Source of the DNA: an uncultured Solirubrobacterales bacterium
GTDB taxonomy: Bacteria; Actinomycetota; Thermoleophilia; Solirubrobacterales; JBBDJG01
Reading direction: 5' to 3'
Length of the DNA stretch: 64,000 bases
NCBI GenBank assembly: GCA_963716195.1
Contig: OY970293.1
Location: 1,014,119-1,078,118 of the forward strand
Below are positions 29,652 to 35,750 of the stretch, one piece after another. The first letter of the stretch is position 1, and each line of letters begins with the position of its first letter. The position numbers and the translations under genes are program-made. Below the pieces are notes generated by a model. That model saw only the letters and a list, made by a program, of their open reading frames with translations. It searched no databases and was not told the DNA's origin.

Positions 29652-31204
<1,553 letters not shown>

Positions 31205-31396
31205 GGGAGAATCATGGGCCCCTCGTCGAGCACGCTCGCCGAGCGGATTTACCTAGGGTTCCGGGTTTTCGTTGCATTGGGCAACGGATGCCTTCCCGAA
31301 ACGTCGACCGAGTCTGGAATGGGCTTCGAGCCCGCATGCTGTTTAGTTTTGAGAGACCGGGCCGGCGCCGCGCGCGTCGGTTTGCCTCTCTCCGGA

Positions 31397-31435
31397 CCTT
31401 GAAAACTGCACAGTTGGCCAAGACAAAACGAGCAA
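31397..31435 (+). promoter_or_regulatory. 23S precursor processing stem, 5' strand, with a spacer boxA-like motif
   Basis: CCTTGAAAACTGCACAGTTGGCCAAGACAAAACGAGCAA pairs with 35528-35565 (TTGCTCTTGTCCTGTGCCAACTGTGCAGTTTTGAGGGT). No tRNA lies in the 16S-23S spacer (31202-31441). Confidence 0.55.
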
Positions 31436-31977
31436 TTTCACCGTCAAGATATGAAGGGCATACGGTGGATGCCTTGGCACCAGGAGCCGAAGAAGGACGT
31501 GGACGGCTGCGATAAGCCACGGTGAGGCGCTGAACAGCCTTTGACCCGTGGATGTCCGAATGGGGAAACCCGGCGCTGGTAATGCGGCGTCATCCCGTGC
31601 TGAATACATAGGCACGGGAAGGCAAGCGGGGGAAGTGACACATCTCAGTACCCCGAGGAAAGGAAATCAACCGAGACTCCCTGAGTAGTGGCGAGCGAAA
31701 AGGGAATAGCCCAAACCCGGCAGGTGTAAGCGGGCACGCGTTGCCTGCTGGGGGTTGTAGGGCGTCTGTTCCGGGCTGTGCCTGGCCCGGCGGGAGTTAC
31801 AAAGTCATGCGCTAGCCGAAGCACGTGGAACCGTGCACCACAGAGGGCAATCGTCCCGTAGGCGAAAGTGTGTGACCTCCCGCAGATGTCCCTGAGTAGG
31901 ACCGTGCCCGTGAAACGCGGTCTGAACCTGGGGGGACCACCCTCCAAGGCTAAGTACTCCCTGGTGACCGATAGCGG

Positions 31978-32011
<34 letters not shown>

Positions 32012-32567
32012 GGAAGGGGAGTGAAATAGTACCTGAAACCGTGTGCCTACAAGCGGTCGGAGCACTTCGGTGTGACGGCGTGCTTTTTGCAGAACGAGCC
32101 GGCGAGTTACTCGTCTGTGGCGAGGTTAAGCGATGAGCGGAGCCGTAGCGAAAGCGAGTCCGAACAGGGCGAATCAGTCGCAGGCGGTAGACCCGAAACC
32201 GAGCGAGCTACCCATGGGCAGGTTGAAGCGGGGGTAAGACCCCGTGGAGGACCGAACCGACCTAGGTTAAAAACTGGGCGGATGACCTGTGGGTCGGAGT
32301 GAAAGGCTAATCAAGCTCGGAGATATCTGGTTCTCTCCGAAATATATTTAGGTATAGCCTCCGGTTATTGCGTAATGGCCGTAGAGCACTGCTTGGACTA
32401 GGGGCCCTACCAGGTTACCGAATTCAGGCAAACTCCGAAGACCATTATGTGAATCCGGGGAGTCAGTCCGTGGGGGATAAGCTTCACGGTCGAGAGGGGA
32501 ACAACCCAGACCACCAGCTAAGGTCCCTAAGTGCTAGCTAAGTGGGAAACGATGTCTGAATGCTCAG

Positions 32568-32616
<49 letters not shown>

Positions 32617-33207
32617 CAGCTCACTGGTCAAGTGTTCGGGCGCGGACAATGTAACGGGGCTCAAGCTAGCCACCGAAGCTGTGGGTTCGGCGATCCTTCG
32701 GGATCGTCGAGCGGTAGGAGAGCGTTCTGTTGCCAGCGAAGCGGCGGCGTAAGCCAGCCGTGGAGGCAGCAGAAGTGAGAATGCCGGCATAAGTAACGAA
32801 AGAGGGGTGAGAATCCTCTCCGCCGATTGTCCAAGGTTTCCTGAGTAAAGCTCGTCTGCTCAGGGTCAGTCGGGACCTAAGGCGAGGCCGAAAGGCGTAG
32901 CCGATGGCCAACGGGTTGATATTCCCGTACCACGTCACATCCGTTTGACCGATTGGGGTGACGAGGAAGGGTAGGGGAACCCAGGCGATGGTCGTCCTGG
33001 GGTAAGCGCGTAGCTAGCGGCCGTAGGAAAATCCGCGGTCGTGTTGATGCGAGGCGCGATGCCAGCTGGCCGAAAGGCCGGCGAGTCCCCGAACCCATGC
33101 CTCCGAGAAAAACCTCTAGGGAGGATGTGCGTGCCCGTACCAAAACCGACACAGGTGGACAGGCAGAGAATGCCAAGGCGATCGAGATAACCTTCGTTAA
33201 GGAACTC

Positions 33208-33244
<37 letters not shown>

Positions 33245-33432
33245 CCGGTAGGGTGAAGCCACTTGCTGGCGGAGCCCGAGGGGGCCGCAGTGAAAAGGCC
33301 CAAGCGACTGTTTACCAAAAACACAGGCCTCTGCTAAGTCGTAAGACGACGTATAGGGGCTGACGCCTGCCCGGTGCCGGAAGGTTACGCGGAGGTGTTA
33401 GCCGCCCTTCGGGGTGGCGAAGCACCGAAGCT

Positions 33433-34292
<860 letters not shown>

Positions 34293-34551
34293 CGACTTGG
34301 GCGCTGTCTCAACGAGGGGCTCGGTGAAATTGTAGTCTCGGTGAAGATGCCGAGTACGCGCGGCAAGACGGAAAGACCCCGTGAACCTTTACTACAGCCT
34401 GATATTGGAGTCTGGGGCATCTCGCTCAGGATAGGTGGGAGGCTTTGAAGCAGTGGCTTCGGCTGCTGTGGAGCCAACCTTGAGATACCACCCTTGATGT
34501 TCTGGGCTTCTAACACCTCACCGTGAAGCCGGGAGGTGAACAGTGTCAGGT

Positions 34552-34583
<32 letters not shown>

Positions 34584-34676
34584 ATGTAACGGAGGCGCCC
34601 AAAGGTTCCCTCAGCACGGTTGGAAATCGTGCGTAGAGCGTAAAGGTATAAGGGAGCTTGACTGCGAGACTGACAG

Positions 34677-34712
<36 letters not shown>

Positions 34713-34733
34713 CGGTTGCAAGTGGAAGCGCCG

Positions 34734-34776
<43 letters not shown>

Positions 34777-34815
34777 GGGCCCAAGAGTCCACATCGACGG
34801 CCCGGTTTGGCACCT

Positions 34816-35121
34816 CAACCATGGGGTGAGCCAGTCGAAATACTGGCTTTAGCATCGGCTAATAACGGTGGAGCCCACCTGCCTGTGCGTTTAGAACGAC
34901 GCGAAAAGGATGGGTAATACCGTGGGAAGTCTGTCGGAAGGGAAGACCATTAGAAGCGTCCCTCCGCAAGTGACCCCGTAACGACTGAGGCACTCGGTGC
35001 CGAGGTGGCGATCCTGCTCCAAAAGGGGCAAATCCTGGACGCCACAATACGCCGACCCCTCGCCTTTGGTCAGGCAGGGTGAAGTTATAGTCTGCGCCAC
35101 CGGTAACGGTGGAATTACGTG
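34816..35121 (+). mobile_element. ORF-less group I intron at 23S position equivalent to E. coli U2500|C2501
   Basis: The 5' exon ends in U (34815) and the intron ends in G (35121). P1 pairs CACCU (34811-34815) with GGGUG (34824-34828), with a U.G wobble at the splice site. An R-like element ACGACTGAGGCACTCGGTGCC lies at 34981-35001, an S-like AAGTTATAGTC at 35082-35092, and a GNRA-capped hairpin CCACCG-GTAA-CGGTGG at 35097-35112. Confidence 0.85.
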
Positions 35122-35237
<116 letters not shown>

Positions 35238-35621
35238 TGCCGTGCGCGTTGGAGAGTTGAGGGGAGTCGTCCCTAGTACGAGAGGACCGGGATGAACGGA
35301 CCGCTGGTGTATCTGTTGTCCTGCCAAGGGCACTGCAGGTTAGCTACGTCCGGACGGGATAACCGCTGAAGGCATCTAAGCGGGAAGCCCACCTCGAGAT
35401 GAGCTCTCCCATCCCCTTGAGGGAGTAAGACCCCTGGTAGACCACCAGGTTGATAGGCCGGATGTGTAAGCGCAGCAATGTGCTCAGCAGACCGGTACTA
35501 ATGGGTCGAGGGCTTGACGGATATTTTTTGCTCTTGTCCTGTGCCAACTGTGCAGTTTTGAGGGTTCGGGAGAGGCCGCCGGTGCGTCGGAAGCGGTTCG
35601 CCGGGCCGACGTGACAACAGT

Positions 35622-35738
35622 TTCCGGTGGCTATCGCGAGGGGGAAACACCTCTTCCCATTCCGAACAGAGCAGTTAAGCCCCTCAGCGCCGATGGTACT
35701 TGGCCCGCAAGGGCCCGGGAGAGTAGGTCGCCGCCGGT
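35622..35738 (+). rRNA. rrf: 5S ribosomal RNA
   Basis: Helix I pairs CCGGTGGC (35624-35631) with GCCGCCGG (35730-35737). Conserved CCCATTCCGAACAGAGCAGTTAAGC and GGGAGAGTAGGTCGCCGCCGG. Ends are +/- 2 nt. Confidence 0.93.
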
Positions 35739-35750
35739 TTTTGATTCAAA

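Follow-up and report, generated by a model that had tools for sequence, protein, structure and literature searches.

Group I introns inserted after position 2500 of the large-subunit rRNA are already known from organelles and archaea. The organellar ones, of which GISSD holds 22, are classed as IB4 (PMC3873408), with examples in the mitochondrial rnl of Nephroselmis and Prasinoderma and in the Floydiella chloroplast rrl.6 (PMC3873408, PMC2997540). The correspondence between breakpoints and reading frames implies that the ORF of cis-spliced organellar introns at this site lies between P9.1 and the 3' end (PMC3873408). In archaea, two LSU/2500 introns of ~800 nt have been assigned to subgroup IA3 (IA3.2 and IA3.3; Nawrocki, Jones & Eddy 2018, PMC6125680). 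The bacterial 23S introns listed in 2007 sit at L1917, L1931, L1951 and L2593, and L2500 is not in that list (PMC1995217). A 2024 survey of the CPR reported many group I introns round the peptidyl-transferase centre of the 23S rRNA, some of them at sites new for bacteria (PMC11270868). In the literature we found nothing relevant on L2500 or on 23S introns of Thermoleophilia or Actinobacteria. A further point of reference is the P7.1/P7.2 extension, which has been described for the IA-type introns of Twort and of the cyanobacterial L2593 site (PMC1995217).

The locus described here is a further site-2500 group I intron. It lies on the + strand of a 64,000-nt stretch of DNA (64 kb; the whole stretch is called the window), at 34816-35121, directly after the equivalent of U2500. 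We regard it as very probable that these 306 nt are a group I intron that follows the standard splicing route and represents the ORF-less state of a LAGLIDADG_2 homing family. As for the host, the LeuA protein encoded in the window has a best match, among metagenome proteins, that is 93% identical, and its named matches at 75-80% are Solirubrobacterales, Thermoleophilaceae and Actinomycetota MAGs. Together with the G+C content of 68%, these homologues point to a Thermoleophilia-like actinobacterium, not a member of the CPR.

The window contains a single rRNA operon, on the + strand, with the 16S gene at 29652-31201, the 23S gene at 31442-35521 and the 5S gene at 35623-35739 (Rfam gathering thresholds). 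The 23S gene measures 4080 nt, compared with a model length of 2925. In a global alignment with the E. coli 23S gene, a 306-nt insert falls at 34816-35121, exactly after E. coli position 2500, bearing out an earlier note on this DNA, which had placed 306 nt between the equivalents of U2500 and C2501. The same alignment puts a 770-nt insert at 33476-34245, after position 1931. A side observation concerns domain I of the 23S gene, where ~80 nt are extra relative to E. coli (31724-31807, near E. coli 283-287); they consist of a 53-nt insertion next to one of 27 nt, G+C-rich and with the look of helix extensions.

The exon sequences flanking the 306-nt insert are TTTGGCACCT up to 34815 and CGATGTCGGCTC from 35122. 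As the first base of the intron and the first base of the 3' exon are both C, the boundaries are formally movable by one base. We chose 34815|34816 and 35121|35122 because only then does the 5' exon end in U and the intron in G; in relatives whose introns start with T, the ambiguity is gone. The insert has a G+C content of 57%, the remaining 23S gene 57.5% and the whole window 68%. Site 2500 lies in the central loop of domain V, the peptidyl-transferase centre. Since it is only 3 nt before A2503, 306 nt kept in the rRNA would be hard to square with a working ribosome.

The fold was modelled as 82 base pairs, from P1 to P9, and scored on an alignment of 29 sequences (A1); all coordinates below refer to the + strand. 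P1 joins the 5' exon CACCU and the intron bases CA (34811-34817) to UGGGGUG (34822-34828), with ACCA in the loop, and its seven pairs are invariant throughout the alignment. In the sequence, the wobble U34815.G34824 marks the 5' splice site 34815|34816. RNAalifold returns six of these seven pairs, the missing one being C34811-G34828. P2 is a hairpin of GCCAGU and ACUGGC (34830-34835 / 34842-34847) with a GAAA-containing loop, and all six of its pairs show changes on both sides. The 5' strand of P3, UCGGC (34855-34859), has its partner GCCGA far downstream at 35051-35055; the two strands covary, with the variants CCAGC/GCUGG, UUGGC/GCCAA and CCGGC/GCCGG. P4 (34865-34870 / 34918-34923) and P5 (34873-34879 / 34908-34915) agree with the corresponding RF00028 elements and show compensatory changes, at U64-A114 and within P5, and the distal P5 hairpin within the P4-P5 region (34865-34923) is variable. 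P6 (34924-34931 / 34972-34977) is nearly invariant, with one compensatory change from U-A to C-G, and it is followed by P6a (34935-34943 / 34959-34966) and its loop L6a (34944-34958).

The catalytic half of the molecule is equally recognizable. The 5' strand of P7, an A, a bulged C and GACU (34981-34986), is invariant in the 29 sequences and aligns to the GACUA element of RF00028. Its 3' strand, AGUCU (35089-35093), is likewise invariant and together with J8/7 (UGAAGUUAU) occupies 35080-35093, where the RF00028 consensus UgAAGAUAUAGUCu is matched. Within P7, G34983-C35092 is the putative guanosine-binding pair. P8 is a hairpin of CCCU(C)GCCU and AGGCAGGG (35057-35079) with 99% of cells paired and both-side changes in 5/7 pairs. 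P9.0 (GCG/CGU, 35094-35096 / 35118-35120) has compensatory changes in two of three pairs, and P9 (35097-35112), a hairpin closed by a GUAA loop, in five of six. The intron ends with the guanosine G35121, at the 3' splice site 35121|35122. Loops L2 and L9 are of the GNRA type in 29/29 sequences.

Much of this had been read off by the earlier note, and most of it stands. It had named the U at the end of the 5' exon, the pairing of CACCU (34811-34815) with GGGUG (34824-34828) that gives the U.G wobble, and a P7 formed by GACU and AGUC (34983-34986 / 35089-35092), all of which are confirmed by their invariance in the 29 homologues. It had also named G35121 as the terminal G, which now adjoins a covarying P9.0, and a GTAA-capped P9 hairpin at 35097-35112, which covaries and keeps a GNRA loop throughout. 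One element was misassigned: the hairpin that had been called P8, in the R-like element, is P7.1 (34988-35002), and the real P8 is the one at 35057-35079.

P7.1 (GGCAC-UCG-GUGCC) lies between P7 and the 3' strand of P3 and covaries, with relatives showing GGCC/GGCC with UUCG loops, GUGGC/GCCAC and GAUCG.../...CGAUC. It is followed by P7.2 (35005-35045), an extended hairpin of GUGGCG/CGCCAC, UCC/GGA and a distal UGCUCC-AAAA-GGGGCA, in which all eight basal pairs show both-side changes and which RNAalifold finds independently. Because covariation identifies the distal GCCGA as the 3' strand of P3, there are two hairpins between P7 and P3'. A proximal GCCGA at 34999-35003 was considered as P3', which would give a canonical intron with no P7.1/P7.2, and was rejected: homologues with CCAGC have the complement only distally.

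Statistically, the model stands well apart from controls in which the 3' partners were slid by 1-3 columns. In the model 88.8% of cells are paired, as against 36-41% in the slid controls, and cells with both-side changes number 213 as against 34-47. Compensatory changes on both sides occur in 47/82 pairs, and the observed covariation score was reached by none of 500 shuffles. The helices that covary are P2, P3, P4, P5, P7.2, P8, P9.0 and P9, whereas P1 and P7 do not vary at all and P6 hardly does, which is expected of elements that serve catalysis or are bound to a fixed exon. RNAalifold, which was not given the model and cannot draw the P7 pseudoknot, recovers P1, P2, P3, P4, P5, P6, P7.2, P8, P9.0 and P9. 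The window copy itself has standard pairs at 80 of the 82 positions, the two exceptions being unpaired in most relatives as well, so that every pair conserved in the family is standard here. The conserved core, with the P4-P6 domain, the pseudoknotted P3-P7-P8 and J8/7, is present.

Two details count against a splicing-competent copy. P10, between ACAUC of the P1 loop and GAUGU of the 3' exon, has at least 5 bp in 46/79 relatives, compared with 15% of shuffled loops; in the window it amounts to CAU/AUG, 3 bp, which is at chance level. In addition, the 3' side of the P7.2 internal loop (35026-35034), which reads AAAUCUAUGG in most relatives and may be a tetraloop receptor, reads AAAUCCUGG in the window.

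Covariance models gave a more ambiguous answer. At Rfam gathering thresholds the whole window yields three rRNAs only and no group I match, and a search of the exon-flanked 551 nt (34700-35250) at E up to 10 gave no group I match either. When 34806-35131 (326 nt) is searched alone, RF00028 aligns over its full length (model 1-253) with 29.9 bits and an E value of 5.5e-6, short of the gathering score of 50, which is an operational threshold and not a defining property. The alignment puts P1, P2, P4, P5, the GACU element, J8/7-P7' (GUGAAGUUAUAGUCU) and P9 at their expected places and requires a long insertion between P7 and P3'. Taken alone, the match is suggestive, and the low score and the empty larger searches were counted against the group I reading. 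The earlier note had proposed a search with RF00028 and had held that the lack of a covariance-model match, together with RNA data in which the 306 nt stay in mature 23S, would speak against an intron. A full-length match was found, although beneath the gathering score, and the larger searches came close to that lack for a technical reason: the ~60-nt P7.1/P7.2 insertion is penalized, and the relative L209, which does not have it, scores 97 bits. Similarly, RF00028 gave no significant matches in the archaeal search (PMC6125680).

Homologues gave a clearer answer. The first scan of genome contigs, with the pattern TTGGCACCTN{4,14}GGGTG, was too loose and returned at least 120 loci, mostly random. 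The only real case among the matches listed is a 358-nt site-2500 insert in a Candidatus Uhrbacteria genome (L031), plainly homologous to the window intron through the common elements AAUACCGUGGGAAGUC, GACCCCGUAACGACUGA, ACGCCGAC and GAAGAUAUAGUCU. In metagenomes, a pattern made only of the 3' exon and the preceding G (GCGATGTCGGCNCNTCNCATCCTGGGGCTG) matched at least 120 stretches, of which at least 85 hold complete site-2500 inserts bounded by the 5' exon. An exon-anchored pattern gave no site-2500 insert in viral contigs. Among the metagenome matches listed, 58 inserts measure 258-430 nt and 28 are longer, mostly 790-885 nt. Among them, the closest to the window intron are L210 (79% identity) and L163 (78%), and the most distant is at ~43%. 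Host loci among these matches range from 35 to 65% G+C, and their flanking exons are 68-99% identical to those of the window, the top values coming from alignments of only ~85-130 nt. We also built an nhmmer profile from 28 relatives, leaving out the window row and trimming the exons; its sole match in the 64-kb window lies at 34820-35121 (envelope 34816-35121), with 225 bits and an E value of 2e-68. On the strength of this match the insert belongs to a large family that is always found at site 2500. The comparative search suggested by the earlier note thus brought up homologues with and without an ORF in metagenomes, plus one CPR genome.

The presence or absence of the endonuclease gene divides this family. 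Long relatives of ~800 nt encode a protein of ~190-200 residues with two LAGLIDADG-type motifs (LLGDG ... FMDDG), assigned to LAGLIDADG_2 (PF03161, E 7.7e-36) and distantly similar to I-SceI. The gene (~570 nt) occupies loop L6a, with its ATG in the 3' strand of P5; its first residues, MGNTVGSL, are encoded by P5', P4' and P6, and the stop is often the UAA of J6/7. Since the ORF overlaps the core, the same bases serve RNA structure and protein. In L181, L128, L177, L199 and L200 (~800-825 nt), both ends of the LAGLIDADG_2 frame run into the ribozyme core. Other copies are decaying, with frameshifts or internal stops in L124, L137, L151, L186, L195 and L237, and recognizable N-terminal remnants persist in the short introns L139, L222 and L231. 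Near-identical ribozymes occur both without the gene (L129, L210) and with it (L186, L195). This pattern of presence, decay and absence is the one expected from the cycle of gain, decay and loss of homing introns.

The window copy has no such gene. ORFs overlapping the insert are without a Pfam match, and tblastn with the relatives' endonucleases against the 64 kb gave nothing beyond ~13-27 residues that overlap the ribozyme at 34852-34945. The earlier note had likewise seen no coding capacity here. No site-2500-type endonuclease was found elsewhere in the 64-kb window, and with no endonuclease gene the window copy cannot home by itself. What it does have is an in-frame stub of 23 codons (34910-34981, + strand) that shares the start codon, the first residues and the stop codon with the gene of the relatives. 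A precise in-frame deletion was considered as the source of this stub and rejected, because only 10/34 short introns are in frame, no more than expected by chance. For the window copy we infer loss as the direction of change. The idea that it is a relic of homing, also voiced in the earlier note, gains support from close relatives that carry intact or decaying LAGLIDADG genes.

With the fold and the relatives in hand, the locus can be compared with the described systems. The predicted P7.1/P7.2 extension of the window intron is an architecture like that of subgroup IA. By the same feature the intron would fit an IA3-like type, the archaeal IA3 introns being compared here by description. With the archaeal LSU/2500 introns the family shares the insertion site and a prokaryotic host, and their length of ~800 nt resembles that of the ORF-bearing relatives; the window copy differs in its bacterial host, its lack of an ORF and its 306 nt. 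The organellar introns share the site, often have a partner at site 1931 of the same gene and often encode LAGLIDADG proteins. They are of type IB4 with the ORF near the 3' end, however, whereas the window type has P7.1/P7.2 and its relatives carry the ORF in L6a. Accordingly, the window intron does not have the IB4 build of the organellar introns, which lacks P7.1/P7.2 and places any ORF close to P9.1 and the 3' end. The L2593 introns have P7.1/P7.2 and a short P2, as here, and differ in insertion site (PMC1995217). The bacterial 23S introns of Thermotoga, Simkania, Coxiella and thermophilic Synechococcus resemble the site-2500 family in their position in domains IV/V and their association with LAGLIDADG proteins (PMC1995217). 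Similarly, in the CPR, ORF-bearing and ORF-less introns are intermixed near the peptidyl-transferase centre and several per gene are possible (PMC11270868), but the window host, with 68% G+C and Actinomycetota-like proteins, does not look like a member of this group.

Both architectures, with and without P7.1/P7.2, exist at site 2500. The low-G+C relative L209 (3198-3578) has P3' directly after P7 (...AACGACUACACGCCGGACA...) and is canonical, while the window type reads ...AACGACUGA[P7.1-P7.2]ACAAUACGCCGAC..., and in sequence it looks like a canonical core with an insertion of ~60 nt. The similar core flanks of the two suggest that one lineage may have gained or lost the extension. In a regex screen that gave no value for ~30 introns, the spacing from P7 to P3' is 40-111 nt in 47 of 80 distinct introns; in the window it is 64 nt. 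Among the introns listed, a short P7-to-P7' distance occurs only in L209 (53 nt) and L158 (35 nt), of which only L209 is confirmed as canonical.

The site-2500 intron is not the only one in its gene. The 770-nt insert at 33476-34245 (+ strand), the first intron in the 23S gene, matches RF00028 with 22.3 bits (E 0.0024), and with so low a score it too was missed at Rfam thresholds. It contains an ORF of 184 residues (33592-34146, + strand) assigned to LAGLIDADG_1 (PF00961, E 3.6e-18), a family different from the LAGLIDADG_2 of the site-2500 relatives. Among the matches listed that have enough upstream sequence, a site-1931 insert accompanies the site-2500 intron in six of 13 evaluable relatives (L133, L138, L144, L161, L236 and L238; 276-677 nt), and a span of >570 nt indicates further inserts between 1932 and 2500 in several relatives. 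The same pair of sites, 1931 and 2500, is occupied in the mitochondrial rnl of Nephroselmis and Prasinoderma (PMC3873408), and three introns share one 23S gene in Synechococcus sp. C9 (PMC1995217). The remark in the earlier note that two introns in one bacterial rRNA gene are rare, with Coxiella as the example, is out of date, several per gene being on record in cyanobacteria (PMC1995217) and in the CPR (PMC11270868). Taking the relatives, the mitochondrial pairs and the literature together, multi-intron 23S genes are less rare than had been held.

On the preferred reading, the intron in the precursor rRNA would fold into P1-P9 with the P7.1/P7.2 extension, and an external guanosine bound at P7 would attack the phosphodiester after the U of the P1 wobble. 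The freed 3'-OH of U34815 would then attack after the terminal G35121, held near P7 by P9.0. The exons ...UUUGGCACCU and CGAUGUCGGCUC... would be joined at the junction UUUGGCACCU-CGAUGUCGGC, restoring the catalytic centre. Judged from the conservation of the intron and the position of the insert, splicing activity is most likely. A copy that is group I by descent could nevertheless have lost self-splicing, and be either retained or removed only with the help of a host or intron-encoded protein such as a maturase from the LAGLIDADG gene at site 1931. The weak P10, the deviating P7.2 loop and the missing ORF of its own would agree with such a loss. A LAGLIDADG maturase activity has been reported for the Thermotoga 23S intron (PMC3984707), and for Simkania, a study cited in PMC11270868 reports in its title a group I intron of the 23S rRNA that is not spliced, which counts against splicing. 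We consider this very unlikely all the same, because all helices conserved in the family are intact and the substitutions found only in this copy, such as those in P2 and P9, are compensatory, and because the G-binding P7, J8/7, P9.0 and terminal G are all canonical. Moreover, the protein at site 1931 belongs to LAGLIDADG_1 and that of the site-2500 relatives to LAGLIDADG_2.

More distant readings would remove the insert from group I chemistry altogether, or from this genome. That the insert is an intervening sequence or an expansion segment, such as an IVS cut out by RNase III to leave a fragmented 23S rRNA, is extremely improbable given the covarying pseudoknotted P3/P7 core, the U.G wobble and the terminal G, which do not make a simple extended hairpin. 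Such sequences are known in many bacterial 23S genes (PMC11270868, PMC2801512) and would agree with an RF00028 score below threshold, but PMC2801512 names helices 25 and 45 as their sites, and this insert is in the central loop of domain V. Only slightly less improbable is an assembly artefact that joined an intron-bearing rRNA fragment of another organism into the contig. Metagenome rRNA operons are prone to chimeric assembly, and exact-sequence look-ups of three window proteins gave no match in the protein collection, which, with a best LeuA match of 93%, means that a metagenome-assembled genome may be the source. Against this, the insert and the rest of the 23S gene have the same G+C content, the gene matches the bacterial model over its whole length, and the flanking exons of the relatives with the closest introns are ~90% identical over ~300-350 nt. 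Even in a misplaced operon, the insert would remain a 23S intron.

Beyond the single, very probably spliced intron, we regard as evenly balanced the broader proposal that it represents a large and largely undescribed prokaryotic lineage at site 2500. Such a lineage would have a canonical core with a P7.1/P7.2 insertion of ~40-110 nt and a LAGLIDADG_2 gene reaching from the 3' strand of P5 to a stop in J6/7. Non-CPR soil bacteria, for instance Thermoleophilia, would commonly carry it. It would have gained and lost its endonuclease repeatedly and be structurally distinct from organellar IB4. Site-2500 introns are abundant in metagenomes, judging by the number of stretches matched. As the Rfam model misses the P7.1/P7.2 architecture, rRNA annotation pipelines probably overlook these introns or give oversized or split 23S genes. 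The finding leaves the known working of group I introns unchanged and is fairly ordinary for an intron family common in environmental bacteria; its interest is modest and lies in the host lineage, the apparent abundance of an architecture invisible to Rfam and the overlap between ORF and ribozyme core. Few non-CPR bacteria with rRNA group I introns are on record, and a high-G+C actinobacterial host now joins them, here with two in one gene. The family also offers a natural series for the study of the homing cycle, from copies with the ORF through decaying ones to copies that lack it, and a case of an endonuclease reading frame overlapping a ribozyme core.

The surroundings of the operon add a minor observation. 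ARAGORN found no tRNA genes in the 240-nt spacer between the 16S and 23S genes (31202-31441) or elsewhere in the 64 kb. An ORF of 891 residues at 49858-52533 matches the NCBIfam model of the A-adding tRNA nucleotidyltransferase (E 1e-143, well below the cut-off), and the host may divide CC-adding and A-adding activities between two enzymes.
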